Shown in pieces: positions 33,047 through 64,000 of a DNA stretch of 64,000 nucleotides (the stretch's first letter is position 1; each line of letters starts with the position of its first letter). Position numbers and translations under genes: made by a program. The DNA comes from Candidatus Dojkabacteria bacterium (GTDB lineage: Bacteria; Patescibacteriota; Dojkabacteria; SC72): NCBI GenBank assembly GCA_016182915.1, contig JACPFP010000003.1, positions 251,685 to 315,684 of the forward strand, in the 5' to 3' direction. The notes under the pieces were generated by a model, which worked only from the letters and a program-made list of their open reading frames with translations, searched no databases and was not told where the DNA came from.

Positions 33047-33049
33047 ATT

Positions 33050-34072: not shown

Positions 34073-34146
34073 GAAGGGTAATGCTAAAATTAAGATATTC
34101 TCTATTAAATTGTGCTAAATGATATCTTCAAGTATAATTTTTTGCA

Positions 34147-37298: not shown

Positions 37299-37465
37299 CT
37301 TGTGATATATGGTCGTAGGGAATCAAATTTAGTTATTTTCAAGTTTTTTAAACTCTGCTCAATATTACAGATAAATTAATTCAAATTCAATACAAGGCTG
37401 TTATTGCATTATCTGTTAGTTCATGTTCAAATAGGTATTGCAATTAATTATAAGCAACCAAGTAT

Positions 37466-39950: not shown

Positions 39951-39951
39951 A

Positions 39952-43574: not shown

Positions 43575-44377
43575 TATCGCTTTACTATTTTAAGCAGGTA
43601 ATTCCCAAAAACCTTTTTATAATCCTGAAACCGACTCTTTATTAGTAACAGGGGATTAGAAGTATATTTCTTTGTTATAGAGAAGTGTTCATTAATATGT
43701 GAAAATGCCCCAGATCCAGTCTTTGATTCATCATAAAATCTAAAATCAGATAAATAATCCTCAATTAAACCAAGTGGGTACTTAACACCTATCCTACACC
43801 AAAAATCGTAATCAAACGAATAATTTAGACCCGTATTAAAATACCCGATTTCGTCATGTAATGACTTTCTCCAAAAGGTAGAGGGTTGAGATATAAAGTT
43901 ATTTTCAGTTAAAAGTTTTGTATAAGTATAAGACAAAAGTCTTTTGTTTTTATACTTCGTGATAAACTCTCTTGAAAGATCAATATTTCCCTCTCTATCC
44001 ACAATATTGCAAAATCCAGTTAACCATTTATATTCGGGGTTTCCAATAAAAAAGCAAGCTACTTTATCAAGAGCCCCTTGTGTATACCTGTCATCAGCGT
44101 TAAGAAAAGCCACTACATCTCCTGACGCAAGTTTAAGTCCCTTATTAATAGCATCAGCTTGACCGCTATCTTTTTCACTAACAAGGACTATTTTATCTGA
44201 ATACCTTTCTAAAATCTCAAGGGTACCATCTGTAGATTTAGCATCCATTACAATATACTCAAGGACAAAATCCCCATTTTGTGAGAGAACGCTTTTAACG
44301 GTATCCTCTATAAAAGGGACCATATTATAAACAGGAGTTATTATCGAGATTTTCAGCTTACTTTTTAGATTTCCCAT
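43574..44377 (-). CDS. glycosyltransferase family 2
   Basis: 267 aa. The GT-A N-terminus reads ISIITPVYNMVPFIEDTVKSVLSQ...DAKSTDGT, followed by a DxD region. Confidence 0.8.
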   Translation of the reverse strand: MGNLKSKLKISIITPVYNMVPFIEDTVKSVLSQNGDFVLEYIVMDAKSTDGTLEILERYSDKIVLVSEKDSGQADAINKGLKLASGDVVAFLNADDRYTQGALDKVACFFIGNPEYKWLTGFCNIVDREGNIDLSREFITKYKNKRLLSYTYTKLLTENNFISQPSTFWRKSLHDEIGYFNTGLNYSFDYDFWCRIGVKYPLGLIEDYLSDFRFYDESKTGSGAFSHINEHFSITKKYTSNPLLLIKSRFQDYKKVFGNYLLKIVKR

Positions 44378-45332
44378 ACTTAAGACTTTTTATTTCATAT
44401 AGAATTTTTTCCTGATTATGGAGTAGTCGATCCTGCATATCAGCAAGAAACCCTAAAAGCCAAATAACAAAGGATACAGACAGAATATATATGGAAGCGA
44501 AACCTAGATATTTATACGGGGTAAAAGAGCCTGTTCGAATCCAATGAATAAGTACAAATATGGCGGCAACAAAACCAGTCACAAAAGGGACAAGCCCTAG
44601 AAGGCCAAAGAACTTAAGGGGGGCATAATCTCTAAAGGAACTCATTATTGAAATTCCTGATTGTAAAATGTACTGCAAAATACTCACTACAACCCTCGAC
44701 TTCCTCCCTTTGAAATACTTAACCTCTACGGGAACGAATTCTATATTCATTTTTTTAGAAGCAAGAACCAGGAAGGACTCTTGAGTGTATGTAAACTTCC
44801 CATTTATATTCAAGTTCAATAAAGCCTCTTTTGAGTATGCCCTAAACCCACAGGTCACGTCTGGATACTTTTCTCCTGTAATCGTACTAACCAACCAAGC
44901 CCCCACTCGATTACCAAAATATTTAGCAACAGGCATATTATCTGGTTTAACTGTTTTTCCGGTCTCAGGATTCTCGAACCTATTAGCAGAAACAAAATCT
45001 GCTCGACCAGAGACGATAGGTTCAACCATTGTAGGAATGAATTCTGGAGAGAACTGCAGATCCGCATCTATACTAACAGCAATATCGGCTCCCATATCCA
45101 ATACGGTCTCTATCCCTTTCATATGCGTATATGCCACTTTTTTCTTCCTCTTGTTTTCGATTACTTTTACGCCAAGGTTTCTAGCAATAGCAACCGACTT
45201 ATCAGTACTACCATCATCAACCATCAACAGTTCAATACTATCAATTCCCTCAATCTTCTTTGGCATCCTTTTGAAAAGCTCACTTAAAGTGGCTTCCTCG
45301 TTTTGACAGGGGGTAAAAATTACAAGCTTCAT
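44358..45332 (-). CDS. GT2 polyprenol-phosphate glycosyltransferase (DPM1/GtrB/ArnC-like) with C-terminal TM helices
   Basis: 324 aa. The N-terminal GT-A domain reads LVIFTPCQNEEATL...MVDDGSTDKS. Two C-terminal TM helices match the architecture of lipid-phosphate sugar synthases. Confidence 0.75.
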   Translation of the reverse strand: MKLVIFTPCQNEEATLSELFKRMPKKIEGIDSIELLMVDDGSTDKSVAIARNLGVKVIENKRKKKVAYTHMKGIETVLDMGADIAVSIDADLQFSPEFIPTMVEPIVSGRADFVSANRFENPETGKTVKPDNMPVAKYFGNRVGAWLVSTITGEKYPDVTCGFRAYSKEALLNLNINGKFTYTQESFLVLASKKMNIEFVPVEVKYFKGRKSRVVVSILQYILQSGISIMSSFRDYAPLKFFGLLGLVPFVTGFVAAIFVLIHWIRTGSFTPYKYLGFASIYILSVSFVIWLLGFLADMQDRLLHNQEKILYEIKSLKYGKSKK

Positions 45333-45382: not shown

Positions 45383-47440
45383 CTAATTAAAGTCCGAGAC
45401 CCTATATAAAAACAACAACTTTTCACCTTTTACATACTGGAGAGGGATAATACCTTCACAGTAGTTACCTAATAAGCCTACTGGGCAAAGTGGAATTGAC
45501 CTGTAATCATAACTATATTTCACAGAAAAATTAGGAATACTCCTCTGCGTAGACATAAAATGCGTTCTATATTTAATTGTATAAACATAACTAATACGAT
45601 TACTTGAAGAAGCCACTTTGTAAGAAGTAAGGAGATAGTACTTATCTATTGAAGATATCTTTCCAAACTCTTCAATATCTCTTAAATTCTCGATAACAAC
45701 GATTTGACCATTATAGAAATATTTCAAAGGAGTCAGCAGAAAACTGTTCGGCCATGAAGGATCCTGTAAATAGAATACTACGGTCTTGGAGTCTATGATG
45801 TTACTAATCGTTTTAAAGGAAGTATCATCAGCTCCATAAGTCTTACCTATTTGCGGGAAAGAAAAAATGAGACTATATACAACCCATAAAGCTATGACAA
45901 GATACCCCAAGATTCTTCTTAATCCAAAAGATGATATCATCTGTGAAATACCAAAGGAGGCAAGAATAATTCCATATGGAATTAACTCAGATACTTGATA
46001 CCGAACAAAATAATAGTGGTGTGGGATAAACTTTAATATAATAATTGAATGCGATAGGAATACTAGAAACAGAACATTAATATATACTAGGAACGGTTTA
46101 CCTAAATATCCTTTGTTCAAAATAAAGTATAAATATCCGATAACTCCTAACGGAGAGACATAAAGGACTAGAGAAAAGAGCGACAGATCCTTTATTGCAG
46201 AAAATCCAGACTCAACTATTTTCCAGAAAGTATCATAAATACTTCCAGAAAAAACATTAGTAAAGCCAAATAAGTACACTAGGATCATCGAGTATATAAC
46301 TAAGCAAGTCAGTATAAATACAGTAAATAGATCTTGTCGTATAAATAGACTTTTTATAATCGAGATATATTTTGGATTCCCTCTTAATGTTCTTTCTCCC
46401 AAGTATATTCCTAGTATGACAAATCCAAAGCATATGATTAGAACCAAATTTAGGATAGAAGTTGACATGAAAAACGACGTTAATAGAGTCGGAATATTTG
46501 TTAGATAGAATAATAACGAAGTAATCCAGAGTGCAGAAAGTCCGAGAAAGAACTTCTGGAAAGCAACTCTATTTATATCTCTATTTTGCATCAAGGAAAG
46601 GTACATAAAAGCGAAAACTGGCATCATAATTACTGAAGTTATTCTGGTGAAAAACGATAGCCCAAACAGTAATACAGATATTAGAAGGGATAAAGACACC
46701 CTATTAGGCCGAACCACGGTTGCTTTATACAAGTAGTAAAATCCTCCTGAAGTAAGGAATAGCATCAATATTTCTGTTACCGGGAAGTTTGAGAAGAATA
46801 TATGCGCAGGATTGATTGCTAGCAAAAGAGCAGATAGATTACCAACAACCCGACTCTTTGTGACACCTCTCGCGAGGAGATAGATATTGAGAATTGATAG
46901 AATAGAGACAAGTGTTAGATATTGAGCCCTATTTCCATCTCCAGCTAAAAAGCCTGTTAATGACATCCATAGAGGATGTAGTGGGTAAAATGAGAATTGA
47001 TAATCGAATTCAGAGTTATCACTACTTTTTAGGGCCGTAACTTTATTGAGGTCGTTCCTTTTGTATAGTTCCTTTTGGTTAGAATTTAACTTATCTAAAA
47101 GAGAGTCCTTTATATATAAACTTTTATTCACCTCATACTGTTTTGACATTGATACATATACCCCCTGATCCTGTCCTCCTTCTAAATACAAGCTAGGAGA
47201 CAACCTGAACCCAGTAGCCAGAATTAGTATGGAAACGAGAATAAAATCTACCTTTATCTTTAAAGGTGAAATCTTAACTTTAGTTAGGATAAGAACAAAA
47301 ATAATACATAGGGAAATTAAAAGCGTAGTACCAGGGGAATATTGCCTCACAGAAAGGAGAATCATTCCGACAACACTAATAACTACAAATGAAAGGAGAA
47401 AGAATTCGTATAGATTAATTGGATACTTTTTGTTTATCAT
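45383..47440 (-). CDS. large polytopic membrane protein; putative GT-C-type glycosyltransferase that uses the lipid-linked sugar
   Basis: 685 aa with >=12 TM helices, immediately upstream of and co-oriented with the GtrB-like GT2. Confidence 0.45.
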   Translation of the reverse strand: MINKKYPINLYEFFLLSFVVISVVGMILLSVRQYSPGTTLLISLCIIFVLILTKVKISPLKIKVDFILVSILILATGFRLSPSLYLEGGQDQGVYVSMSKQYEVNKSLYIKDSLLDKLNSNQKELYKRNDLNKVTALKSSDNSEFDYQFSFYPLHPLWMSLTGFLAGDGNRAQYLTLVSILSILNIYLLARGVTKSRVVGNLSALLLAINPAHIFFSNFPVTEILMLFLTSGGFYYLYKATVVRPNRVSLSLLISVLLFGLSFFTRITSVIMMPVFAFMYLSLMQNRDINRVAFQKFFLGLSALWITSLLFYLTNIPTLLTSFFMSTSILNLVLIICFGFVILGIYLGERTLRGNPKYISIIKSLFIRQDLFTVFILTCLVIYSMILVYLFGFTNVFSGSIYDTFWKIVESGFSAIKDLSLFSLVLYVSPLGVIGYLYFILNKGYLGKPFLVYINVLFLVFLSHSIIILKFIPHHYYFVRYQVSELIPYGIILASFGISQMISSFGLRRILGYLVIALWVVYSLIFSFPQIGKTYGADDTSFKTISNIIDSKTVVFYLQDPSWPNSFLLTPLKYFYNGQIVVIENLRDIEEFGKISSIDKYYLLTSYKVASSSNRISYVYTIKYRTHFMSTQRSIPNFSVKYSYDYRSIPLCPVGLLGNYCEGIIPLQYVKGEKLLFLYRVSDFN

Positions 47441-47873
47441 CAGAAGTATTATAACTTCCCTTCACCTGTCTGTACAATCTCCAACTGTAATATGCCAACG
47501 CAACCATCACAACAACAGACCCCCAACACCATACGCAGAAAGCTCCAATCTTAAAGTATTCTACATACCTAAGATATACTGTATATGAAATACCAAAGAT
47601 AACGCCTAAGAAATACAGGTTAAACAACCCCTTACTCTCCTTCTTAAACAACATCATGGCCATTACAAACATTCCAAAATAGTAGAGGAGACCCCAAAGA
47701 GCTACAGGGATCCCGAGCATATAGGAGTATGGACTTGCATCAACAATATCGCAACCCGAGTTAGGACAGATTACAGATACATTCAGAGCCTTAGAAACAT
47801 ATAAATAGCCAGATAATAATACCCCTACACTAAGCAGGAGTATTATTATTTTTAGAAGCTTACTTCTACTCAT
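47415..47873 (-). CDS. vitamin K epoxide reductase (VKOR) family protein
   Basis: 152 aa with 4 to 5 TM helices. A loop Cys pair (CPNSGC) and the active-site CxxC sit at a TM border (FCVWCW). Confidence 0.75.
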   Translation of the reverse strand: MSRSKLLKIIILLLSVGVLLSGYLYVSKALNVSVICPNSGCDIVDASPYSYMLGIPVALWGLLYYFGMFVMAMMLFKKESKGLFNLYFLGVIFGISYTVYLRYVEYFKIGAFCVWCWGSVVVMVALAYYSWRLYRQVKGSYNTSDDKQKVSN

Positions 47874-47875
47874 TT

Positions 47876-48712
47876 CTATTTAAGAAGTTTATCCAAAACA
47901 TTTTGGAAATCTGCATATGGATATGCACCTGCAAGAAGTGTTCCTTCAGTTACATTACCCTTACTGTCTAATTTCCCTATAATGAATCCTGGAGTTCCAG
48001 TTACACCTGCAGCGCTACCATCTGTGATATCTGCTTTAATTTCATCTGCAAATTTCTTAGAACTGTAACATGACTTATACTTACTTACATCAGCACCGGC
48101 CTGTTTTGCATAACTTTCCATAGTTGCATCTCCACCAGGTACTCCTTCACCATTAGCAACTGTATTTGTGAAATATAGATCGTGGAATTTGAAGTATGCT
48201 TCGTTACCCTTCTGTTCAAATACACACTGAGCTGCTAAAGCTGCATTAGTTGCCTTAGGATCATGGAAGCTGAGTGGGAAGTCTCTGAATACGAGGATTG
48301 CCTTTCCAGTATCAACATAGTTCTTAACTAAATCTGCATGTGTTTCTGTGAAGTGTCTCTGACAGAATGGACACTCATAATCACTGAACTCAACAATTGC
48401 AACTTTCGCCTTCTTCTTATCTCCTAGGTATGGGTCATCATCAATTGTTATTTTTGCAGTCCCATCTCCGGTTGTTCCAGTATCGTTTCCAGTGTCGGAA
48501 CCTGTATTTGTATCCGTTCCTGTATCTTTTCCGTCATTATTTATACTTGTACCTTTGAGGGTGAAGATAATAGCAAGAGCTATCATCAATCCTGCAATCA
48601 AGATTGAAAAAGGAATAAGGAGCTTATCCATATCAAGAACCATTACGTTCTCTTTCTTCACAGGAGCAGAAACTGCTTCAGGTTTACTAACTTTCTTAGT
48701 GGTCTTAGCCAT
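47876..48712 (-). CDS. DsbA-like thioredoxin-fold thiol:disulfide oxidoreductase, membrane-anchored, with a Thr/Gly/Asp-rich linker
   Basis: 278 aa with an N-terminal TM, the low-complexity linker DTGTDTNTGSDTGNDTGTTGDGT, and the active site CPFCQRHF. Confidence 0.8.
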   Translation of the reverse strand: MAKTTKKVSKPEAVSAPVKKENVMVLDMDKLLIPFSILIAGLMIALAIIFTLKGTSINNDGKDTGTDTNTGSDTGNDTGTTGDGTAKITIDDDPYLGDKKKAKVAIVEFSDYECPFCQRHFTETHADLVKNYVDTGKAILVFRDFPLSFHDPKATNAALAAQCVFEQKGNEAYFKFHDLYFTNTVANGEGVPGGDATMESYAKQAGADVSKYKSCYSSKKFADEIKADITDGSAAGVTGTPGFIIGKLDSKGNVTEGTLLAGAYPYADFQNVLDKLLK

Positions 48713-50992: not shown

Positions 50993-53900
50993 TCATACTT
51001 CAGATACCCTTTTCCTTCCTTTTATTACAACGAGGGTAATAATAGATAGTATGGCGACTCCCAAAACTACTAGTAAGATTATATTATTCGAGATAAGATT
51101 GCTCAATGAAAAATCCTCTTCTGATATATCTTTATTTGGATCCTTGGTATCACTATCAACCGGCTTTGTAGGGGAATTGTCACCTTCAACCCTCATACTA
51201 TACATATCAGTGTAATGATTTGAGCCATCTATAATGTTAATTGTTATTTTATGATCCCCCTCTTCTAAATCCTCATCAGGAGTCCAGACCCAATACCCTT
51301 CACTATCTGCCACGGTTTCTCCCTCTATTAGCTTGGAATTAATCGTTATTTTAACAATCGCATTTGGATATGTTTTTCCACTAAAGGTTGGACGTTTTTC
51401 GGATACAATCAAAATATTATCTACAATTTTAGAATTAAGTATTGTGAAGGTAGACTGAGAGTTAGTATCATCAGGAACTTGACCATCCCCCTCTCCATTG
51501 TCTTCGTTTACATCCGGTGAGGTACTTTCAAGGAGTTCAATTGTGTCACTATATACCTCACTTGTGTTTCCTTCGCTATCTCTATACTGTGCAAACACCT
51601 CACGAACCCCCGTTCCCGCAAGTAGTGCCCAATATCCGCCCTCATTATAGTTTTTCCAAGTACAACCAGTGAAAGTATCATTATTACATACCCTCATACT
51701 TGTAACCGTCGAGAAATCATCTTGGGCAATAGTTGTAAGCCAGACGTATGGCCAGTCAGTAGATTCTGCATTCCCACCAATTACAACACTCCCTTCGGGT
51801 GGGTATGTATCAGTGTCATAGTTAATCTCTACTGACTGAATGATAGGAGTAAGTTCTTCGTTAGTGGTGCTCAAAACGAATTTATACTGCAGATACCTAC
51901 CATTTGGAGAGACAATACTATCACCATCAACTAACTCCCAACTACTCCACGTACTATTTGGGGTAGATGAATTCCCTGTACGTGTATATTTTACAATGGA
52001 TGTACCAACCGGAACTGTAGAAGAGTCCACAACTTCGTTCCACTTTGTATTACGTCCTCCATCAATAACCTTCGATATGTACTCCCCGCTCGGTTGATAT
52101 CCAGAGTTAAACGAGACCTCAGTTACTGAAGGAGTAACGGAAGTGTTTGTGGTTGTAAGGGTTAACTTATACTGAATGTATTCATTTCCTACCAAGTCTG
52201 CGGGATCTATATAACAGCCATAACGATTAAAGCAAATATCATTCCATGAAGACCATTCACTATTGGGGAGTTCAACTGTAATCCAATCAATTTCATAACT
52301 GTCAGAAGGCTGCCAAGTATACGACGAAAGCGGGTCAATATATGGCTCAACCCCTATCTTACTAAATGGGAGAGTTGGAATTAATGTCAGGTACACCCAA
52401 TCGTTTACGGTATAGTAGTACGACGATCCATCTTCCCATTCGTCTGTGAATAGGTAATCAGAATAAGAGAAGGGTTCACTCGATTGGTCTACACCAACAT
52501 TACTTCTAACCTTCATTCTAACCATGGAACCCGCTGGGAAATAATCATCCGCCTTTCCGGTATCAATCCACATTGTAGCCCATTTATTATCGACAGGATC
52601 ATCCATAGTAAGAATGCCATTGATAGTCTCTACACTATTGAAGGGGGCCCCCCAACCATAGAAATCGGTAATATAACTTACATCATTACTGTTAAAATTA
52701 TCCTCCCAAACACCATTGACATCGGCTGTTCTATATTGAATTCCAACCGTCGTATTTGCAGGAAGGTCTGAGGTAAGGGAGAGTAGATCCGATGGCGTTT
52801 CTGAAATCTTTTTCGCTTTCGAAATATACTCACCATACTTTGTTTTTCGCCCATCTAGATAAACGGAGAATAGGCCCTCAAAAGTATTAATATATAATCT
52901 CGAATCATTTTTATCTAAATACGTAGCGAGACTATAGGTATCCGGATTGCCAATTCCATCTTCCCAATTGTATGTTCTGTGGATTGTATCGTCGGAGGGA
53001 TCAACAGTTAAATGAGTATCAATGATTGCAATCCCGTATGTCGGAGACGATAAATATAACATTCCCTCGTCACTATCAAGGAGTGTACTATATGTCCAGC
53101 TTGGATTAGTTAAAGAACTTGATCCTATGGCTGGTGTACTCGAAGTGTTATATGATACTAATAGCTCATCATCTGAGGGGGCAACGGTACCCTTCCGGTC
53201 AATTACATCAACCCCACTTCTTGAACTAAGGTAAAGTAAATCATTAGCAGAATCGATTGTAAGATGGTACATATTATTATCAGTAATTGCGGGTGTGGAG
53301 CTTGAGGTATATGTAAATATTCTTTCATCATCTGCAACTGAAGTCGTTCCCTTTGTATCTATAACATTAAGTCCTGCATTGAAGCTTACAATATATATAA
53401 GGTTGTTGGCAGAATCAACTACGGAATGGGTTACCCCATTTCCTGCTATGGAAGGGGAAGAGGTGGTCCGGTATGTAATTAGAAGCGTATCATCAATTTG
53501 AGTAGTTGTTCCCTTTGTATCAATTACACTAAGTCCCCCACCGTTCTGAGATATATACAACAAATCTGTAGTTTGATCTAAGTATGAGTGATAGACTCCA
53601 CTGGTCGAAATTGCTGGAGATGAAGTGGGGGAATATGTTGCGACAATAACATCATCACTCATGTCCAAAGTATCATTTGTGTCAATCACTTTTAATCCTG
53701 ATCCAAAAGCTGATACATATAGAAGACCGGTCACAGTATCTAAATATGTATGGCGAACCTGATCCGCTCCCAAGGAAGGAACTGAGGTCGAGGAATAGTG
53801 TGCAACGACTACATCATCACTAATATCATTTAGATTGTTTTGATCAATAACAAAAAGACCCTCATATGAACTAAAATATATAACGTTATTTATTTCATTA

Positions 53901-54256
53901 ACCCAAATATTTAAGCCCTGAATACCTATATCATATCCAAAAAACTCATCACTATAATGCACAAACTCTGAAAGTTCTAAATCTGCATCTGATGGAGCAA
54001 TATTAACTTTCGAGCCTGCCTTCAAACCTTCTTCAAGGGTATCACTCAAAACATTCCTATTCTGTTTCAACGATATGCTTCCAGGGGATAGATTTGTTTC
54101 GAGTGTATTACCTACAGTCCCCTGTTGAAAATCACTTTGTGTAGTATGAACTACTGAAGATGATACGGCATAAAGGGGAGTTATACACCCTCCTAGAAGG
54201 ATAAACATAAGCCCTCCCCCAAGAAAGCTTGTTATGTAATATATTATTTTTGACAT
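50993..54256 (-). CDS. large surface protein with LVIVD-type beta-propeller repeats and a C-terminal Big-like domain plus TM anchor
   Basis: 1087 aa. An N-terminal signal/TM is present. About 6 repeats contain LFVID, LKVID, LSVID, LNVID, VDVID and IAIID, preceded by SS(T)P(A)I. The C-terminus is ...ILLVVLGVAILSIITLVVIKGRKRVSEV. Confidence 0.7.
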   Translation of the reverse strand: MSKIIYYITSFLGGGLMFILLGGCITPLYAVSSSVVHTTQSDFQQGTVGNTLETNLSPGSISLKQNRNVLSDTLEEGLKAGSKVNIAPSDADLELSEFVHYSDEFFGYDIGIQGLNIWVNEINNVIYFSSYEGLFVIDQNNLNDISDDVVVAHYSSTSVPSLGADQVRHTYLDTVTGLLYVSAFGSGLKVIDTNDTLDMSDDVIVATYSPTSSPAISTSGVYHSYLDQTTDLLYISQNGGGLSVIDTKGTTTQIDDTLLITYRTTSSPSIAGNGVTHSVVDSANNLIYIVSFNAGLNVIDTKGTTSVADDERIFTYTSSSTPAITDNNMYHLTIDSANDLLYLSSRSGVDVIDRKGTVAPSDDELLVSYNTSSTPAIGSSSLTNPSWTYSTLLDSDEGMLYLSSPTYGIAIIDTHLTVDPSDDTIHRTYNWEDGIGNPDTYSLATYLDKNDSRLYINTFEGLFSVYLDGRKTKYGEYISKAKKISETPSDLLSLTSDLPANTTVGIQYRTADVNGVWEDNFNSNDVSYITDFYGWGAPFNSVETINGILTMDDPVDNKWATMWIDTGKADDYFPAGSMVRMKVRSNVGVDQSSEPFSYSDYLFTDEWEDGSSYYYTVNDWVYLTLIPTLPFSKIGVEPYIDPLSSYTWQPSDSYEIDWITVELPNSEWSSWNDICFNRYGCYIDPADLVGNEYIQYKLTLTTTNTSVTPSVTEVSFNSGYQPSGEYISKVIDGGRNTKWNEVVDSSTVPVGTSIVKYTRTGNSSTPNSTWSSWELVDGDSIVSPNGRYLQYKFVLSTTNEELTPIIQSVEINYDTDTYPPEGSVVIGGNAESTDWPYVWLTTIAQDDFSTVTSMRVCNNDTFTGCTWKNYNEGGYWALLAGTGVREVFAQYRDSEGNTSEVYSDTIELLESTSPDVNEDNGEGDGQVPDDTNSQSTFTILNSKIVDNILIVSEKRPTFSGKTYPNAIVKITINSKLIEGETVADSEGYWVWTPDEDLEEGDHKITINIIDGSNHYTDMYSMRVEGDNSPTKPVDSDTKDPNKDISEEDFSLSNLISNNIILLVVLGVAILSIITLVVIKGRKRVSEV
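52860..53900 (-). repeat. LVIVD-like coding repeat array (~55-aa units)
   Basis: Seen in the translation of ORF 50993..54256 at aa ~120 to 465. Confidence 0.6.
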
Positions 54257-55999: not shown

Positions 56000-57118
56000 A
56001 TGGTTAAAACTCTTTACAAATATATTCTTAAACCAATACTCTTTCGATTTGATCCAGAGTTTATTCACAACCTCTTTACATCCAGAGGACGGCTTCTAGG
56101 TAGATTTAGGTTAACAAGAAGTATTCTAAAGAACGCATTTCGATATGATTCCCCTTCCCTACATCAAGAGATTGCGGGAATTAAATTTAAAAACCCCGTC
56201 GGTCTGGCTGCGGGTTTTGACTATGACGGAAAACTAACAGAGGTACTTGAAAGTATAGGGTTTGGATTTCAATCAATTGGTACAGTTACATACTCCCCAT
56301 ATGAAGGGAATTCGAAACCGAGGCTCGCTCGGCTTCCAAAATCTAAGTCTCTTCTTGTAAACAAGGGATTTAAGAGTGATGGAATTGAGAAGGTATTAAA
56401 TAGGAATGTAAGGGAATGGAATGAGACATTTAAAGTTGGGATTTCAATTGGTGCTACAAACTCTAAAGAATGTTCAACTCCTAAGGCACAAATTGAAGAT
56501 ATTATTAAAAGTTTCTCCTATCTTAAATCACACAAGCTTCTTGAAAGGTTTTCATATTTGGAACTAAATATTTCATGCCCTAACGTTTTAGGTTCGGGTT
56601 CACTTGCAGATACAGAGAATTTGGAGGATGTACTTAGTAAGATAAAGGAACTAGGAATCGATAAACCTATCTTTGTTAAGTTTCAACTTGAAATTGAGTG
56701 GGAAAAGGCAAGAAAACTTATAGAGATTATTATTAAGTATGGGGTGGAAGCCATTATAATTGCTAATCTTCTCAAGCAAAGAGAAGGGAGTGAGATTAGG
56801 AAAGAGGAACTAGAGAGTGTTAAGAATCTTAAAGGGAACTTCAGTGGAAAACCAACCTTCAATCTTTCAAATGAACTTATAGAGAAAACATATAGAGAAT
56901 TTGGAGATAGGATTAAGATTGTTGGTTTAGGGGGTATTTTCAATGCCGAGGATGCTTATGAGAAGATAAAAAGAGGGGCTTCGCTTGTACAGTTGATTAC
57001 AGGTATGATTTACGAGGGTCCACAGGTCATTGGGGATATTAATAGGGGTTTAGAGCGATTATTACGCAAGGATGGATATAAGAGTGTAGATGAGGCTGTA
57101 GGGAGTGCAGTTAAATAG
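56000..57118 (+). CDS. pyrD: dihydroorotate dehydrogenase (quinone), class 2
   Basis: Contains GLAAGFDYDG (compare GLAAGFDKNG) and the Ser catalytic base region. I placed the start at ATG 56000 (MVKTLYKYILKPILFRFDPEF), which matches PyrD N-termini, rather than the ORF-track start 55901. Confidence 0.85.
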   Translation: MVKTLYKYILKPILFRFDPEFIHNLFTSRGRLLGRFRLTRSILKNAFRYDSPSLHQEIAGIKFKNPVGLAAGFDYDGKLTEVLESIGFGFQSIGTVTYSPYEGNSKPRLARLPKSKSLLVNKGFKSDGIEKVLNRNVREWNETFKVGISIGATNSKECSTPKAQIEDIIKSFSYLKSHKLLERFSYLELNISCPNVLGSGSLADTENLEDVLSKIKELGIDKPIFVKFQLEIEWEKARKLIEIIIKYGVEAIIIANLLKQREGSEIRKEELESVKNLKGNFSGKPTFNLSNELIEKTYREFGDRIKIVGLGGIFNAEDAYEKIKRGASLVQLITGMIYEGPQVIGDINRGLERLLRKDGYKSVDEAVGSAVK

Positions 57119-57761
57119 TGTCTTCGCTTATCTTTCGGTCTACTAGGGCTATTCCTTTTTCAACGTTCGAGGTTTCGACTATAAATCTATGACAAAAAGA
57201 ACCTAAATGATGAATGAAATCTGGTGCAGAAAAAATATCATTACGTTCTTCTTCGGTGAGCTTCTTTCCTTCAATCTCTTCCTGATATATGATTAATCCA
57301 TCCCTTATCTTTTCAAGAAGGTATGAATGAAGAGCTTGAGGAGTAAACATATTTTTGGGGATATCAGGAAAGAGGACGGGAATATGTAATCCGCTAAATG
57401 CACTATCATATCTGCAGTAGAATTGCATCTTTGCTTCATCATTTAAAATCCTTGGACTGATGTGAAGACCCATAGGGGAATGACCAGATGTAAACATAAA
57501 CGATCCTTTTTGACTTGAATCAGGGACCCCCATAAGTTCATCGTAAATAATGATATCTTTTAACTGTGGTAGTGCTCGAACTTCAATCGTTGGAAGTGAA
57601 TCTTGGTAATCATCTCTGTATCTATGGACCCTAATAAATATTGCACATTGTGCAGATTCAGAGGCCTCTTCTTCAATAGTTTTAACAAATTGTTCATGGA
57701 GACCTTTTATATTGGTAACGTGGTTAGGGAGATCAAAGGGTAGGAAATCAGAAGAATACAT
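57111..57761 (-). CDS. hypothetical cytoplasmic protein
   Basis: 216 aa with no signal peptide. It is co-oriented with and downstream of the sortase gene. Confidence 0.45.
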   Translation of the reverse strand: MYSSDFLPFDLPNHVTNIKGLHEQFVKTIEEEASESAQCAIFIRVHRYRDDYQDSLPTIEVRALPQLKDIIIYDELMGVPDSSQKGSFMFTSGHSPMGLHISPRILNDEAKMQFYCRYDSAFSGLHIPVLFPDIPKNMFTPQALHSYLLEKIRDGLIIYQEEIEGKKLTEEERNDIFSAPDFIHHLGSFCHRFIVETSNVEKGIALVDRKISEDTI

Positions 57762-57861: not shown

Positions 57862-58542
57862 CTACTCTACCTTGTCTCCTACAACAATTACCCGTTTAAA
57901 GTTAAAACCAGCAGGCCAACAGGTCATAAGGGTAACTGTATCCCTATCTTTATACTTTCCAAGATATTTTACATCTGTAGGGGAAAAGATTTTAACTTCA
58001 CGAACGCTGTACTTGTAGACAGTACCTTTGTAACTGAGGTATATCTCGTCTCCTTTCTCAAGTTTGTTTATGAGGTAGAAGTATACGTTATATTTTCTCT
58101 GCTCATAGAAGTTTACAGCAGAGTGTGCAAAGAGGAATGTATTTCCTTTCTCATTAGGTAGGGCGGTTCCTTTAGCATGGGCCACACCTTTTGTAAGGGC
58201 GCTTGTATACTCTCTTTCTGCATATGCATTTACATTGGGTATTACTACAGAGTTTGCCCCTATCTTGGGAATATAGATACCGAAGTTTGAGTCTATAATT
58301 ACGGGGTCTTTCTCCTTCTGAACTTCCTCTTCTTTTACAACCTCCTGCTCAACCTTCACGATAACATTCTTAGAAACCTTAGGTGAGAATGTATATGTTA
58401 TGTATGCAGATAGATAGTCTTTGTAGGTGAGAAATATTATAGCGAAACCGAGAAGTAAAAGGAGGCCACCAATAATTTTGATAGGCCTCCTTTTCAAATT
58501 CATTTTACTTAATCGTTGGCTTATTGTTTCTATTTCTGACAT
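57862..58542 (-). CDS. srt: sortase (cysteine transpeptidase)
   Basis: 226 aa with an N-terminal TM. The catalytic residues are His in LFAHS, Cys in TLMTCWP (TLxTC) and Arg in KRVIVVG. Confidence 0.8.
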   Translation of the reverse strand: MSEIETISQRLSKMNLKRRPIKIIGGLLLLLGFAIIFLTYKDYLSAYITYTFSPKVSKNVIVKVEQEVVKEEEVQKEKDPVIIDSNFGIYIPKIGANSVVIPNVNAYAEREYTSALTKGVAHAKGTALPNEKGNTFLFAHSAVNFYEQRKYNVYFYLINKLEKGDEIYLSYKGTVYKYSVREVKIFSPTDVKYLGKYKDRDTVTLMTCWPAGFNFKRVIVVGDKVE

Positions 58543-61500
58543 AGAGATATGCTACACCACCAGCTCCAAGAAGGGCAACTGCGAGGAGAACATATTTTAA
58601 CCAATCCCAAACAGTATTCTCATCTTTCTTATTAGAATCACCATTTGTACTCTCTTTGTCTCCAGTTCCTTTAACATCCTCTTCTTCATTATCACCATTG
58701 TCACTTCCATTTCCTCCATTCTCTTCCTCATTTCCACCGTTATTGTTATTTCCTGTTCCAGCTCCTTGAACCTCTCCACCTTCATCGATGATGGTTCCAG
58801 GAACAACTGTTACAACTGTGTCTGCAGTGAAGTCTGAGCTGTTATCTGCATCATCTACTGCTCTAACGGCGTAGAAATACTCAAGGTCGCAGTTAGGAAC
58901 GGTATCGGTGTATGTGACTTCTTGATTTGGTGTTGCTGATATAACTGTAACTAGGGTTGAACTGTTCGCAACAAATGATTTCTCTGTTGACCTGAATACC
59001 TGTACTTTTGATGTTTCTCCATCATTTGCGGTTGTAAAGGTGAGGGTATATGTACATGTACCCTTTGTCTTCTCGTAGTTCTTAACTAGTTCTGGTCCTG
59101 TGAGGTCTAGAAGCATTGAAACTTCAGAAGAGGTTGTAGTATCAGCACCTGCATTAGCTACAACTCTAAATTCATATGTTCCTTCAGTTGAAAGAACTGA
59201 GCTATCAACTACACAGTCTGCGCTATCTCCACCTGCTCCAAGATCAAATGTTGATCCGAAGTTTGAGAAGGATCCTTCTCCTGGTTTCATAACCTGACAG
59301 TCTGCGGTTACGTCTCTACCCTCTATGTCTAAAGCTACGAATCCTAACTTCATACTTGTTTTATTAAATACTGTCTTTGGTTGCTCAACTCTAACGGCTA
59401 GGCTGTCTGCGGCATTTGCCTGCATTGGATTCATTAGTGAAAATACACCTGCAAGTATTACGAATGATGCAAGTACTCCTTTTTCCAATCTTCTCTTATG
59501 TGGTCCTACTGCAAATAGTATTAGACCAACGAGAAGAGAGATAATTCCGAGTATAGTTAGAAGGGTTTCAGCTCCTGTATTTGGGAGGGATACTCCTAAT
59601 ACTTCTGCATTTCCTTCTTCAATATCATTTACAACTCTTACGTTAGAGTCTGCGAAGAACCCTACTTCTCCATCTCCAATAACTGGATCGGAAACTACAT
59701 CGTCACCCTTTACCCATGCTAGATCTTCATACGTTCCTGCATCTTGTGATGTGGAGATGTTAGCAAGGTATGTAAGGACAACTTCGTCTCCTTCTTCCAT
59801 ATCGCCTACCAACCATGTTCCGAGTGAACCATATGATGGCTGAGGTACAGGGATTGAGACTCCATTCTTCTTAGCCGTCCAAGTGCCTGACTCATAGCTA
59901 AATCCTTCAGGCATAAGGTCTGTAACAACTACGTTACTCAAAAGGTATGGAGAGTCCGTAGAAGCGACTTCTACATCTGTTGGTATAACCGCTTCTTCAG
60001 TTGCAGGAGGAGCGGTTACAACTAATGTGTATGTAACGGCATCACCAGCCAAAAGATCGACACCACTCTTATCGTTGAACTTTGTAATCTTAAGTTCAGG
60101 ATTTACTACTTCGTTTCTACACTCATATGTAACAGGCTCGTTGCTTCCAACTTCAACGTTGAAGTCATTAACTACATCAAGAATTTTTTCCTCTTCTTTA
60201 ATATTGCATCCGTGGAATATAAACCCATCCTTTTCAAGCTCAGTTAGGTTGTATGACCCAGGATTGAGGTAATATACAGCTACTTTACTATCATCGCCGT
60301 TATCTGAAATGTATGGACTGTCTTCCACTGCAGAAACTACCTGTCCCTCAGAATCTCTAACTTCAGTTTCAAATTCGACTGAAGAGATAACTTCTTCTAC
60401 TCCTTCTTCAACCTCTCTAAAGAGATCCTTCTCAACTGTCAATATTGCAGGTAATTGCTGGTTTACGATTGTAGCGACAGTTGTTTGATTAGGAACGACG
60501 GTTACCTGGACTCCATCTTCACCAGCTTCCTCATCTCCTTCATATCCATAGATCTGGTAATCAGAGTTCTCTAATTCTGTTACGTCGTACTGTCCTGGGA
60601 GTAGGTTAATATATTCAACGTAGTTTCCTGGAGTTACAGTCTCTGTGTTAGAACCATTTAACTCAAATTGGAACTCAGTTGTATCACCAGCTACTAACTC
60701 TCCATTTACATCAACAAGTTGCTTATATACTTGAATTGACCCTACTTGTACTCTGTTTACACAATATACAGTAACGGAATCGCCACTTGTTAGGTCGTTA
60801 AGTTCTAATTCAGCCGCGAGTTCTCCCTCTCTACCAACTCTACAACCCATATTCTCATATCCATATTCAGAGACTTCTGTAAGGTCATAATCACCAGGAA
60901 CAACTGACAGTACAGCGACCTTTGGTAAATCTTCATCATCAGAAATAACGCCAGAGTCTGAATCCGTAGTATCATCTACTCCATCAAGGTTTACAGTGAA
61001 CTCAGTATTATCGTTAATGTCCTGGTCGTCATAGTTGATAACATCTTTATATACAGTTACTGTTGCATCGTTCTGCCAGTTTGTACATGTAACAACATTA
61101 CCTGTTGTATCATTTGAAGATAGAGTTACACCAATTCCACATCCCATTTCAGTATAATCTGGATTATTTGTTTCCTGAACATAGTATGACCCTGGATTTA
61201 CTACCACATTCAAGTATGGATTCTCTTCCGAGATTGTAATCCCTTCATATCCTACTACTGGATCGTTTGTAGCACTATCATAAACTGTAACTGTGAATTC
61301 TTCATTATCTACAACATCTCCTACTCCATTTGGTCCTAATACATTCTTTTCAATATCAAAACTTGCAACTTTCTGTTTATTAATACATGTTACAGAATTT
61401 TCATGGTCATTACTTTCAACAACAATTTCTAAGTTATCACAGTTCATTCTCTCATAATCATCATTTGGAGTTTCTGTTAAGTAGTATGTCCCAGGATTAA

Positions 61501-64000
61501 GATCTTCAAATGTGGCGTCACTTAATTCTGAGATTGTCTTTGTACTTTCGTATGCATATGTTCCTTCTGTAGTTTCTAGGTTTGCAGTTAAGGTCACATC
61601 AAAAGTCGTTGCATCTGCCACTTCACCACCGTCTGGATTTATAACGTCTTTACTTACAGTTATTGAACCAACCATCTGCTGGTTAGTACAGGTTACAATG
61701 GTTTCTGTTGAACCTGAAGTAAGGGTAACTTCGCTTTCGACACAACCTAATGATGCATAATTTTCATTACCTACTTCTTCTACTGTGTAAGTTCCAGGAA
61801 CCAGCCCATCAACTACCAATCCTGTCTGAGATTCCAAAGCTGCTATTAAACCTGACTCGACGGTTTGGCCTTCGAAAAGAATATTTACAGTAAATTCAGT
61901 ACTATCGTAGACTACACTACCATCTGGATTTAACATCAACTTAAAGATTGTCATCATTGCCAACTTTTGATCATTGACACATGTAATACTTACTTCAGAA
62001 CCGCTTGATAACTCACCTGTTGATAAGTTGTTACAATTTACACTTGTATATAGAGGATTCTCTAGCTCGTTTATGTAATATGTATATCCTGGATAAACAT
62101 CATAATAGGCGCTATTTGCTGTCATCCCTTCGTAAATCTCTTTTGTTCCAAGAGCAACTATTACGTTTAGATCAAAGTCTTTAATTTCAACATTGAAGTG
62201 AGTGTCATCACTTACATCTGTCACTCCATCAGGAGCCATAACCTCTTTATCTACATAGATCCTAGCCCAATCCTGACTATTTGTAATGGTAAGGTTAGTT
62301 GATGTATCTTTAACAACAACTAACTGCGCTCCGGAGGTGTTAACGTCTAGATCAGTACTAAATCCAACAAAGTTATAATCGGAAGGAACAATTTCTGTAA
62401 TAGTGTGATTACCAACTCTTACGTTGAAGAACGTTACGAATTCTCCCCCCTGAACAACCTGAGCTGTTCCCATATTTCCATCAAGTACTACTGTGAAATT
62501 TGTATCATCATTTGTAACTTCGAATAGTCCATCTGGAGTTGTCAAAACTTTTGTAACAACAATATCGCCAACTTGGACTTTATTTACACAGTAAATATCT
62601 ACACTTTGGTTGCTTCCGAGTGTGAGGTCTAATGTAGTATCTAATGATCCGGTTGTGGAAATCTTACAACCCATGTTATCAAATCCAAATTCTGCATCCT
62701 CGGTTAGTAGATAATCTCCAGGTACAACAGTGAAAGTTTCAGGGGTCTGTAACGAGAGATCTAGAGATGTATCTTGAATTGTTCCAGTACCTTCATAAAC
62801 AGTACTGTTAACGCCATCTAGGTTTACAGTGAATTCTGTGTTGTCTACAATATTTGAGTTATCATAATCTCTAACGTCTTTATAAACATTTACGGTTGCA
62901 TTCTTTTGAGCGTTTACACATGTAAGAGAAGTACTTCCTCCTGGTGTAATCGTAAATTCATAACTATTACATTGAGATGCATTTGTTTGGTCGTAGTTAG
63001 AGTTACTATCTTCATTAATCGTATACGTACCTGGGTTAAGGGAAAGTACTGCTGGTGAATTTTCTGAGATAGGTTCATTTGAAATAACCTCTGTACCAGA
63101 AAGATCTACTGTAAAGGTGGTATTATCAACAACCTCTGTTATCCCATCAGGTGCAACTACGTTCTTGTTAATAGTTAATGTCCCTTCGCTCTGTCTGTTT
63201 ACAATTATGATCTCTCTTGTCTGTGCTTCTCCTACAAGAATTTCAGCGCCATCGGAAAGGTCTGAGTCTAGTAGATTTCCCTCCATATCTGTAACTGCAT
63301 ATGCAGTGTAACCAGAAGGCATATTCGTTTCGTTTACAGTATAAGTATCAGCTGCAAGGTCTGTATAATTTACAGATCCTCCGTCAGTTAAAGTTTGTCC
63401 GTCTGCTCCATCTAATGTAACAGTAAACAACTCTGAAACGTCTACAATGTCCTCACCGTTTGGTCCCTGAACATCTTTATAAACAACTAATCCACTAGGA
63501 CTAGGGGTGTTATTAAACTGACATGTAGCATCTACAGCAGTATTTGCAGCAGTAACAGTAGCAGTTGCAATAGATCCATCAAACGTACAATTGGTTCCAC
63601 TTCCGCTATCGAAACCGTAGCCAGGAATAGATACTTCCGTTACTGTGAAATTTGTAGGAGTGTCTGCTATAAGATCAATATTCTGAATAACAACTCTATC
63701 GACTCCATCACCATCTCCAATAATACAGTATGATGATTTTCCGTTTATAGAAGGGCTAACATTAAAGCACCATTGGTTTGGGTTTGCCGTTCCATTTACA
63801 ACATCTTTTATAATTGTAAGGTCAGGAAGCTCAATTACTTGATTCGCTGGTACTGGAACATTTTGCTGTCCAGACTGTTCTAAAACCCCGCCAGATGCGT
63901 TTAATCTACTGTGCTGTGAAGATCCATTACAACCACCAGCCTCTTCTGAAAGCTGTAAAGTATACTCAACTAAAGCTGAACCTGTTGGGTGTGAGAATGT
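58505..64000 (-). CDS. giant cell-surface adhesin-like protein (>1830 aa, 5' end beyond the window) with tandem ~110-aa Ig-like (DUF11/CnaB-like) domains each carrying a Cys pair; an internal LPNTG sortase signal is followed by a further exported FN3-like domain and TM anchor
   Basis: The frame stays open from 63430 to the window edge, so the TTG at 63430 is not the true start. The repeat signature is (V/I)xVxK(D/N)V..PDG...V.D.T.FTV.L ... C...........C(V/T)N. LPNTG at ~59572..59586 is followed by a hydrophobic helix and PHKRRLEKG. The stop at 58505 overlaps the sortase gene by 38 nt. Confidence 0.8.
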   Translation of the reverse strand, partial: TFSHPTGSALVEYTLQLSEEAGGCNGSSQHSRLNASGGVLEQSGQQNVPVPANQVIELPDLTIIKDVVNGTANPNQWCFNVSPSINGKSSYCIIGDGDGVDRVVIQNIDLIADTPTNFTVTEVSIPGYGFDSGSGTNCTFDGSIATATVTAANTAVDATCQFNNTPSPSGLVVYKDVQGPNGEDIVDVSELFTVTLDGADGQTLTDGGSVNYTDLAADTYTVNETNMPSGYTAYAVTDMEGNLLDSDLSDGAEILVGEAQTREIIIVNRQSEGTLTINKNVVAPDGITEVVDNTTFTVDLSGTEVISNEPISENSPAVLSLNPGTYTINEDSNSNYDQTNASQCNSYEFTITPGGSTSLTCVNAQKNATVNVYKDVRDYDNSNIVDNTEFTVNLDGVNSTVYEGTGTIQDTSLDLSLQTPETFTVVPGDYLLTEDAEFGFDNMGCKISTTGSLDTTLDLTLGSNQSVDIYCVNKVQVGDIVVTKVLTTPDGLFEVTNDDTNFTVVLDGNMGTAQVVQGGEFVTFFNVRVGNHTITEIVPSDYNFVGFSTDLDVNTSGAQLVVVKDTSTNLTITNSQDWARIYVDKEVMAPDGVTDVSDDTHFNVEIKDFDLNVIVALGTKEIYEGMTANSAYYDVYPGYTYYINELENPLYTSVNCNNLSTGELSSGSEVSITCVNDQKLAMMTIFKLMLNPDGSVVYDSTEFTVNILFEGQTVESGLIAALESQTGLVVDGLVPGTYTVEEVGNENYASLGCVESEVTLTSGSTETIVTCTNQQMVGSITVSKDVINPDGGEVADATTFDVTLTANLETTEGTYAYESTKTISELSDATFEDLNPGTYYLTETPNDDYERMNCDNLEIVVESNDHENSVTCINKQKVASFDIEKNVLGPNGVGDVVDNEEFTVTVYDSATNDPVVGYEGITISEENPYLNVVVNPGSYYVQETNNPDYTEMGCGIGVTLSSNDTTGNVVTCTNWQNDATVTVYKDVINYDDQDINDNTEFTVNLDGVDDTTDSDSGVISDDEDLPKVAVLSVVPGDYDLTEVSEYGYENMGCRVGREGELAAELELNDLTSGDSVTVYCVNRVQVGSIQVYKQLVDVNGELVAGDTTEFQFELNGSNTETVTPGNYVEYINLLPGQYDVTELENSDYQIYGYEGDEEAGEDGVQVTVVPNQTTVATIVNQQLPAILTVEKDLFREVEEGVEEVISSVEFETEVRDSEGQVVSAVEDSPYISDNGDDSKVAVYYLNPGSYNLTELEKDGFIFHGCNIKEEEKILDVVNDFNVEVGSNEPVTYECRNEVVNPELKITKFNDKSGVDLLAGDAVTYTLVVTAPPATEEAVIPTDVEVASTDSPYLLSNVVVTDLMPEGFSYESGTWTAKKNGVSIPVPQPSYGSLGTWLVGDMEEGDEVVLTYLANISTSQDAGTYEDLAWVKGDDVVSDPVIGDGEVGFFADSNVRVVNDIEEGNAEVLGVSLPNTGAETLLTILGIISLLVGLILFAVGPHKRRLEKGVLASFVILAGVFSLMNPMQANAADSLAVRVEQPKTVFNKTSMKLGFVALDIEGRDVTADCQVMKPGEGSFSNFGSTFDLGAGGDSADCVVDSSVLSTEGTYEFRVVANAGADTTTSSEVSMLLDLTGPELVKNYEKTKGTCTYTLTFTTANDGETSKVQVFRSTEKSFVANSSTLVTVISATPNQEVTYTDTVPNCDLEYFYAVRAVDDADNSSDFTADTVVTVVPGTIIDEGGEVQGAGTGNNNNGGNEEENGGNGSDNGDNEEEDVKGTGDKESTNGDSNKKDENTVWDWLKYVLLAVALLGAGGVAYLYVRNRNNKPTIK

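Follow-up and report, generated by a model that had tools for sequence, protein, structure and literature searches.

An internal sorting signal fused to a signal-peptide-like segment and a tandem-FN3 membrane module: a probable membrane polyprotein encoded beside a sortase in Candidatus Dojkabacteria and other CPR bacteria

In the canonical sortase system, that of S. aureus protein A and SrtA, the substrate has an N-terminal signal peptide and, at its extreme C-terminus, a sorting signal composed of an LPXTG motif, a hydrophobic helix and a basic tail, and the sortase is a membrane cysteine transpeptidase with a TLxTC motif. In flavivirus prM/E/NS1 and in polyproteins of the endoplasmic reticulum (ER), a stop-transfer helix is followed by an internal signal sequence that is cut by signal peptidase. 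The locus considered here, in a genome of Candidatus Dojkabacteria, has features of both. It lies in a stretch of 64,000 nucleotides (contig JACPFP010000003.1 of assembly GCA_016182915.1, positions 251,685 to 315,684), which we call the window, and it consists of a long open reading frame (ORF), in which an LPXTG adhesin runs directly into a membrane module of two fibronectin type III (FN3)-like domains, and of a sortase gene just downstream. All the parts of the canonical system are present, but 355 amino acids (aa), including a second exported domain, follow the motif. The ORF represents a real and recurrent gene fusion in a three-part cassette (LPXTG adhesin, tandem-FN3 membrane module and dedicated sortase) of the Candidate Phyla Radiation (CPR, or Patescibacteria), and its product is probably a membrane polyprotein, the processing of which we infer. 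Sortases are a widespread family in the CPR, being present in more than half of the genomes (PMC6744442).

An internal sorting signal in a fused reading frame

Coordinates given here are positions within the window, and the adhesin, the module and the sortase are all on the minus strand. The ORF ends with a TAA stop at 58505-58507. An earlier note on this stretch, made from the sequence alone, had placed the start at 63430; this did not hold, since the frame is open up to the window edge, past 64000, and an exact look-up identifies the full protein as MBI2357088.1, a hypothetical protein of 1988 aa from a Candidatus Dojkabacteria (WS6, CPR) metagenome-assembled genome (MAG). In the part that lies outside the window, MBI2357088.1 has an N-terminal Sec signal peptide, MKNIFKLLGKYRQSIYSIFVLL...SEVFA/SP, the N-terminus reading MKNIFKLLGKYRQSIYSIFVLLIMQSYTLIPSMYAIQGSISEVFA/SP (here and below, a slash between residues marks a cut). 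The translation of 58505-63430 (minus strand) reads ...EVLGVSLPNTGAETLLTILGIISLLVGLILFAVGPHKRRLEKGVLASFVILAGVFSLMNPMQANAADSLAVRVEQP... and has the C-terminal end ...WDWLKYVLLAVALLGAGGVAYLYVRNRNNKPTIK. Followed in order, the frame passes through NAEVLGVS, LPNTG, a hydrophobic segment, AETLLTILGIISLLVGLILFAVGP, the basic HKRRLEKG, a second hydrophobic segment, VLASFVILAGVFSLMNPMQANA, and ADSLAVRVEQP, and there is no stop for 300 further residues; it finishes with WDWLKYVLLAVALLGAGGVAYLYV and RNRNNKPTIK. A Kyte-Doolittle hydropathy above 1.6 (19-aa window) is reached in just three segments of the whole ORF, the proposed transmembrane (TM) segments TM1, TM2 and TM3.

The body of the adhesin (59588..64000, continuing upstream of the window) is a stalk of SpaA/SpaA_2 prealbumin-like repeats, matched by the Pfam models SpaA_2 (1e-14) and SpaA (1.2e-11), and its last domain is DUF11/CLIPPER, with a DUF11 score of 34.2 bits (cut-off 24.6) within the last 181 aa ahead of LPNTG. 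DUF11/CLIPPER, here the final domain before LPNTG, is of the isopeptide type (PMC12617251). The LPNTG sortase motif occupies residues 1629-1633 (59573..59587), with an EVLG motif just ahead of it, and is followed by TM1 (59501..59572; Kyte-Doolittle 1.83; AlphaFold2 (AF2) helix at model residues 25-47), the stop-transfer helix of the sorting signal. Thus, LPNTG, a 24-aa hydrophobic segment and HKRR make up an ordinary sorting signal, and the Pfam model Gram_pos_anchor matches at LPNTG with 20.4 bits (cut-off 20). No second LPXTG followed by a helix exists in the 64-kb window, and the module is likewise present in a single copy. The signal is not at the extreme C-terminus, because 325 aa follow KRRLEKG.

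At 59477..59500, the charged tail of the sorting signal and the n-region of the next signal peptide coincide in one short basic loop, HKRRLEKG, which would be cytoplasmic. The following TM2 (59411..59476; AF2 helix at model residues 54-71) resembles a Sec-type signal peptide, with an n-h-c layout (KRRLEK, GVLASFVILAGVFSLM, NPMQANA/AD) and small residues at -3 and -1 of a predicted signal peptidase I site, ANA/AD. Its position, at residues 1658-1687 of 1988, is not that of an N-terminal signal peptide. It nevertheless aligns column for column with the true N-terminal signal peptide of a stand-alone homologue (P0007). By a crude -3/-1 rule, fused forms and split forms, in which the module is a gene of its own, have the same residue composition at these positions, with an h-plus-c run of 20 aa in the fused and 19 aa in the split; the residue at +1 is variable across the family. 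Given this likeness to the split-form signal peptides, a cut by signal peptidase I at ANA/AD is to be expected. The hairpin formed by TM1, the loop and TM2 was compared with that of the nearest relative, L019: the non-synonymous value, 0.35, is lower than the synonymous one, 0.62, which indicates that the hairpin is read in this frame, with the proviso that synonymous saturation and masked spacer bases limit such dN/dS estimates.

These results agree with much of the earlier reading. The hydrophobic helix and basic stop-transfer behind LPNTG are borne out by translation, hydropathy and the Gram_pos_anchor match; the 325 aa said to continue past KRRLEKG are there in the translation; and the suggestion that KRRLEKG begins an n-h-c signal peptide with an AxA site is supported by the P0007 alignment and the crude -3/-1 rule.

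The same arrangement recurs well beyond this genome. A search with the last 520 aa returned homologues at 32-47% identity, among which P0001-P0004 and P0006 show the same order of LPXTG, helix, basic loop, signal-like helix, AxA, module, helix and basic tail. A module profile run against 1.84 billion protein cluster representatives gave 4126 matches at E<1e-3, 480 of them at E<1e-30. The sequences examined closely were the best 150 profile matches plus those of the first search, 153 in all. In 108 of them, all long proteins, some 100 aa separate the module from the C-terminus; since P0013, a generic FN3-repeat protein, was set aside, 107 long proteins and a family of 152 are considered below. 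An LPxTG lies upstream of the module in 103 of the 107, the other four having LAxTG, LVITG or AATG variants. As to whether homologues end after the basic tail, as the earlier note had asked, 103 of the 107 long ones continue, as here, and the adhesins of the split loci described below end there. Counted to the first Lys/Arg, the TM1 equivalent of family members measures 20-29 aa; the median loop is 6 aa long and contains about four Lys/Arg.

A genome scan with one genome per GTDB species, using a module profile built from three closer sequences, found 16 loci: 14 fused with LPxTG, one fused with a degenerate motif and one split. Their MAG titles include WS6, Dojkabacteria, Moranbacteria and Parcubacteria, and some read Saccharibacteria, Bdellovibrionales or Gammaproteobacteria, which may be mislabelled. 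As a side observation, the cassettes from MAGs titled 'uncultured Bdellovibrionales', 'Gammaproteobacteria' or 'Saccharibacteria' (among L010, L012, L013, L016, L018, L020, L007, L009 and L019) group with those of Parcubacteria, Moranbacteria and WS6, so that these titles look unreliable.

Stand-alone modules exist as well. Forty-five of the examined matches are about 320 aa long, and about 38 of these have an initial Met followed by a Lys/Arg n-region and a signal peptide. Five split loci were confirmed on DNA (L001, L010, L022, L023 and L024), and in all five the upstream gene is an LPXTG adhesin with a stop after its basic tail, and a sortase follows. Adhesin stop and module ATG overlap by 4-8 nt or are 2 nt apart, with the stop in front, the stop/start forms being ATGAnTAA, ATGA or TAATAATG; in L001, L022 and L023, the AGGAG-type Shine-Dalgarno of the module lies inside the Arg/Lys codons of the adhesin tail. 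A further candidate, P0005, was rejected as a stand-alone module, being a fused form ended by the end of its contig.

With 146 modules on a rough neighbour-joining (NJ) tree, parsimony requires no fewer than 18 changes between the fused and split states. A trace of such joins may be visible in the loop itself: a Met occurs there in 38 of the 103 fused forms, seven times the background. The usual context, K-x-M-K-K, is the one expected if a basic tail had been joined in frame to a signal peptide that starts MKK.... The fusion would arise repeatedly by changes of 1-2 nt in the overlapping stop and start of the split form, and A-rich junctions would make indels of ±1 easy. Lys/Arg codons at the junction of sorting signal and module produce runs of A5-A7 in fused and split loci alike (window 59477-59500; L001:1410-1445; L010:5905-5945; L023:365-400), the tract at the window junction being GAAAAAGG. 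It is plausible that this A-rich junction is an indel hot spot, which could explain the many fused/split switches or even phase variation.

A second set of observations concerns the recognition motif. In 100 of the 107 fused adhesins, a GEVLG-type motif, G[EDQS][VIL]xG, stands a few residues ahead of LPXTG, and 111 of the 152 family members have the motif again in their acidic spacer; the window forms are EVLG (59588-59605) before LPNTG and GEVQG (58760-58775) in the spacer. The members with a variant sorting motif (L015, at 5716-6030 and 7010-7507; P0102, P0104, P0120 and P0030) include one Moranbacteria-type lineage with ..VLGAATGT(E/N)T.. in place of LPXTG and an intact downstream sortase, whose motif is LILMTCWPPG. 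Judging from the sequences, the recognition motif of the sortase may have drifted in these members. The idea that loss of LPXTG goes with loss of the sortase in L015 was dropped, because tblastn finds the sortase present and intact; a regular expression for TLxTC had missed it.

The module and the sortase

The module (58796..59410) comprises two tandem beta-sandwich (FN3/Ig-like) ectodomains, 205 aa in all, with two conserved Cys pairs and an interdomain linker, GPxxPxxYSK. It is followed by an acidic low-complexity spacer of 62 aa, rich in Gly, Asn, Glu and Asp (58610..58795), in which the GEVQG motif lies, and by the TM3 anchor with the basic tail RNRNNKPTIK and the TAA stop (58505..58609; Kyte-Doolittle 1.84; AF2 helix at model residues 345-374). 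In the AF2 model, the two beta-sandwich domains have a predicted local distance difference test score (pLDDT) of 87-97 over model residues 81-280, and they are flanked by a helix-loop-helix (TM1/TM2) on one side and, on the other, by the disordered spacer, with a pLDDT below 50, and the terminal helix. Translation, hydropathy and the model are thus in accord with the Gly/Asn/Glu-rich spacer, TM helix and tail read earlier. The FN3-like domain of about 270 aa was right as to fold and wrong as to length, since it resolves into the 205-aa beta-sandwich pair and the 62-aa spacer. Across the family, a C-terminal helix and basic tail are found in 124 of the 152 members. The module has no LPXTG of its own, only this plain helix and tail.

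Sequence comparisons place the module in no named family: it has no Pfam match at E<=0.01, fn3 included (the best is CARDB, at E=0.21), and none among the NCBIfam models or in a profile search of PDB sequences; nor does it contain the YPKN pilin motif (WxxxVxVYPKN). Foldseek against the PDB retrieves only generic tandem FN3/Ig folds, namely neogenin FN5-6, Tie2 FN2-3, transglutaminase C-terminal barrels and V. cholerae RbmA; for neogenin FN5-6, Tie2 FN2-3 and RbmA, the E-values are 1e-7 to 1e-6 and the TM-scores are low, at 0.2-0.4. Within the family, certain residues hardly vary. In 150 members, Cys45 and Cys73 are conserved in 100%, Cys126 and Cys181 in 95%, and the linker Lys (YSK) in 92% (K in 139, R in 9, V in 1 and H in 1). 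The conserved Cys pairs point to an extracytoplasmic location. The window also encodes a VKOR beside a DsbA-like thioredoxin and, farther off, a DsbD-like membrane protein (47415-48712 and 7820-9283), and these genes fit an extracytoplasmic, disulfide-bonded module. Extracytoplasmic disulfide machinery has been reported to be linked to sortase and pilus systems and to be enriched in the CPR (PMC6744442).

The dedicated sortase (57862..58542, minus strand) carries a membrane helix at its N-terminus and its catalytic Cys in a TLxTC motif, here TLMTCWP; it matches Pfam Sortase (PF04203) at 2.2e-25 (89.3 bits, cut-off 26.6). Unlike the canonical sortases, it fits no curated class: all the NCBIfam class models stay below their cut-offs (class C, 80.6 bits against 160; class E, 53.3 against 160; class D, 47.7 against 165; class GN, 22.9 against 158), and the generic TIGR01076 is the only NCBIfam model that it passes. 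The nearest solved structures are those of class C pilus sortases. In each of the 24 loci for which DNA is available, the gene immediately behind the module encodes a homologue of this sortase.

Where the sortase gene begins is less certain. From the ATG at 58542, it overlaps the module ORF by 38 nt; from the in-frame ATG at 58503, 1 nt past the module stop, it begins with MNLKRRPIK followed by the helix. Both patterns are found among relatives. In the split loci, the called sortase start is 1-8 nt past the module stop, and in L006, L007, L009, L011, L012 and L017 the sole pre-helix ATG is found 8-56 nt ahead of that stop. A sortase gene that abuts or overlaps the 3' end of the module ORF therefore stands, and the figure of 38 nt in the earlier note, which holds only with the ATG at 58542, is plausible and not established. 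The proposal that the overlap is an artefact of taking the longest ORF was withdrawn, because in several relatives the sole pre-helix ATG is upstream of the module stop. Tight coupling or overlap of sortase and module is thus a family trait.

Two further observations belong to the surroundings of the sortase. Just downstream of it in the window is an ORF of 216 aa (57111-57761, minus strand) with no Pfam or NCBIfam match; because the genes past the sortase vary among relatives, this ORF is probably outside the cassette. In L005 (ERZ2647912 NODE_4859, coverage 1.86x), THF_DHG_CYH, SHMT, Thy1 and the sortase are all in pieces, and the junction of adhesin and module is still in frame. That housekeeping genes are split in this contig suggests frameshift errors.

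Proposed processing and its alternatives

By the positive-inside rule, the adhesin would be outside, TM1 would run from out to in, the loop would be inside, TM2 would run from in to out, the module would be outside, and TM3 would run from out to in. We propose that the N-terminal signal peptide sends the adhesin, of about 1600 aa, through Sec, and that TM1 halts the transfer and leaves the HKRR loop in the cytoplasm. TM2, the former signal peptide of the module, would re-insert with its N-terminus in and its C-terminus out and restart translocation; the module would be outside, where its two disulfides can form, and TM3 and the basic tail would anchor it. The sortase would cut LPNT/G and deliver the adhesin to the envelope, with a cell-wall precursor as the default acceptor, and signal peptidase I would cut ANA/AD. 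The products would be a surface-linked adhesin, a two-helix hairpin remnant and a tandem-FN3 protein held in the membrane by a type-I anchor.

Fusion would be topologically neutral under this scheme. It would be tolerated because the sorting signal ends in the cytoplasm exactly where the signal peptide begins, and it would deliver adhesin and module in a 1:1 ratio at one translocon, next to the sortase. The constant synteny of adhesin, module and sortase suggests that the module acts together with the sorting reaction or with the adhesin once sorted. The earlier note had offered three possibilities, and the first of them, a single polypeptide that the sortase divides into an adhesin and a membrane protein, fits best, given that the targeting signals of both halves are kept in more than 100 diverged homologues and that the sortase always follows.

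Several points weigh against this reading. The -3/-1 test for signal peptidase is a crude heuristic, and signal peptidase may not process an internal signal peptide behind a transmembrane helix. Some of the 'split' representatives may be artefacts of gene calling or frameshift, five having been verified on DNA, and the number of switches is an approximate NJ/Fitch count. Finally, the matches of the module, all to generic FN3/Ig folds, include no informative homologue, so that its role is a guess; tentatively, we put it forward as a partner or tether, non-catalytic and close to the membrane, of the sorted adhesin or of the sortase.

Could the fusion instead be a defect of this record, in which a frameshift in sequencing or assembly, or a lost stop, has joined two ordinary genes? 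Split relatives do exist, only 1-2 nt of register away, and the junction is A-rich. However, an independent Logan assembly is identical to the NCBI MAG protein MBI2357088.1 wherever the two overlap (the Logan product is called 23 aa shorter at the N-terminus); the closest relative, L019, with 73% identity in the module, is fused too, with a one-codon indel in the loop; fused is the majority state in the family; and this genome offers no usable ATG or GTG ahead of the hydrophobic core of the signal peptide, so that a split version would leave the module without one. Since the fusion is conserved in homologues and reproduced by an independent assembly, an assembly error is effectively excluded, and the second possibility of the earlier note, two fused genes, stands as evolutionary history, given the split versions, and falls as artefact. 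The third, internal initiation, would have the module made also or mainly on its own from a start codon in the loop, the fusion being only apparent at the protein level. Here some relatives speak in its favour: the loop Met of 38 fused homologues, the Shine-Dalgarno within the basic-tail codons of split loci, and L003, where the loop has GGAGG, 7 nt and an in-frame ATG, so that such a start is plausible there. In the window, however, the sole in-frame candidate in the loop is a TTG (Leu of RRLEKG, codon 1661) preceded by aagagaaga, with no Shine-Dalgarno match at workable spacing, and in 7 of 20 fused loci, L019 among them, the loop has no in-frame ATG, GTG or TTG at all; Shine-Dalgarno-like strings are, moreover, an expected by-product of AGG, AGA, AAG and GGA codons. 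For lack of a good start in the loop, the module of this genome is probably made only as part of the fusion, and we consider internal initiation very unlikely here.

The remaining alternatives accept the fusion and differ in what becomes of the product. If the sortase cut LPNT/G and TM2 stayed uncleaved, a three-helix protein (Gly-TM1-loop-TM2-module-TM3) would display the module; a signal-like helix behind another helix can indeed be an uncleaved signal anchor, and the AF2 model shows TM1 and TM2 as a helix-loop-helix. Yet the small -3/-1 residues and the short h-region are kept in the fused forms as in the split ones, where cleavage is normally expected, and without selection for cleavage such features should decay over lineages less than 50% identical, which makes this outcome unlikely. 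It is tempting to consider, too, that the module is itself the covalent acceptor: once signal peptidase had exposed the module, a class-C-like sortase would join the adhesin, at LPNT, to a Lys of the module or to its new N-terminus and so excise the two-helix hairpin, a sortase-driven 'splicing' that would anchor the adhesin independently of the wall, tethering it covalently to the membrane by the module stalk and TM3. The sortase has as its nearest solved relatives the class C pilin polymerases, whose nucleophile is a protein Lys; adhesin, module and sortase lie side by side in every case, the fusion giving a 1:1 ratio; the Lys of the GPxxPxxYSK linker is highly conserved; and PamR of the CPR Pam pilus, a membrane-anchored protein with RbmA-like tandem FN3 domains and a C-terminal transmembrane helix, is a proposed pilus tether of a different CPR bacterium (bioRxiv 10.64898/2026.03.03.709456). 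Against this, 9 of 150 members have Arg and two have Val or His in place of the linker Lys, which does not suit an essential nucleophile, and the Arg replacements in particular weaken the idea; the YPKN pilin motif is missing from the module, the residue at +1 past the predicted signal peptidase site is not conserved, and the sortase does not reach the class C cut-off. The same product could be had more simply by fusing adhesin and module directly, with no hairpin between them, and an M23 peptidase encoded in the window hints at peptidoglycan and hence at an acceptor of the usual kind. On balance, an acceptor role for the module seems quite improbable, and the membrane polyprotein cut by both sortase and signal peptidase remains the reading we prefer.

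The window and comparison with known systems

Elsewhere in the window there are four further large predicted surface proteins (15481-19749, 19913-24481, 50993-54256 and 10065-11885), with Big_6, Big_13, DUF5122 beta-propeller, fn3 and CarboxypepD_reg domains. As all of them are without LPXTG, the window seems to contain only one substrate for the adjacent sortase. Two surface-polysaccharide clusters (31841-45332 and 12522-15466) encode GT1/GT2/GT4 glycosyltransferases, a GDP-mannose 4,6-dehydratase, a flippase-type Polysacc_synt protein and a Bac_transf priming transferase.

In textbooks and prediction pipelines, sorting signals are treated as strictly C-terminal, and in this CPR family (480 representatives at E<1e-30) the signal is usually more than 300 residues from the end. 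The survey of sortase substrates in PMC12617251 sought the motif in the last ~50 residues only, and screens limited in this way would miss the family. Our literature search, which covered few subscription journals, found no description of an internal LPXTG followed by a signal peptide, of such a bacterial polyprotein or of this cassette. The architecture is real, widespread and unannotated, yet mechanistically understandable. Should the processing model be true, bacteria would have a natural membrane polyprotein whose parts are separated by a transpeptidase and a signal peptidase, and the module would be a third component of sortase cassettes that had not been recognised before, in a lineage with an attachment-dependent episymbiotic lifestyle. 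The fused/split switches amount to a natural experiment on the topology rules that permit gene fusion.

How does the cassette relate to the systems it most resembles? Pilus clusters with class C sortases, and the class GN 'marine' sortases with one adjacent target, likewise place a sortase beside a presumed single substrate, and the best structure and sequence matches of the sortase are class C sortases; shared, too, is an isopeptide-domain stalk adhesin (SpaA, DUF11/CLIPPER) as substrate. In contrast to pilus clusters, there is no YPKN backbone pilin here, and the third component has no LPXTG, has a plain TM anchor and is usually fused behind the sorting signal. PamR is alike in its signal peptide, two FN3-type domains and C-terminal membrane helix, and in belonging to a CPR surface-filament locus; RbmA is, moreover, among the Foldseek matches of the module. 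The likeness is an analogy of architecture only; PamR is part of a donor-strand-exchange pilus that has no sortase.

A function for what the sortase leaves behind has a precedent in S. gordonii, where, as cited in PMC11326707, the membrane 'C-pep' remnant of sortase substrates is sensed by a two-component system and has a signalling role. By analogy only, and going by that citing account, a post-sortase membrane remnant would have a function of its own in both cases; the remnant described there is a sorting signal of about 30 aa, whereas here it would carry a folded surface protein of 300 aa. As to topology, there is a parallel with the viral and ER membrane polyproteins. In these, as proposed here, a helix ends in the cytoplasm, a signal-like helix restarts translocation, and proteolysis on the outer side separates the products. 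The differences are that the present polyprotein is encoded by a bacterial chromosomal gene and that one of its two proposed cuts would be a transpeptidation by sortase rather than a hydrolysis.

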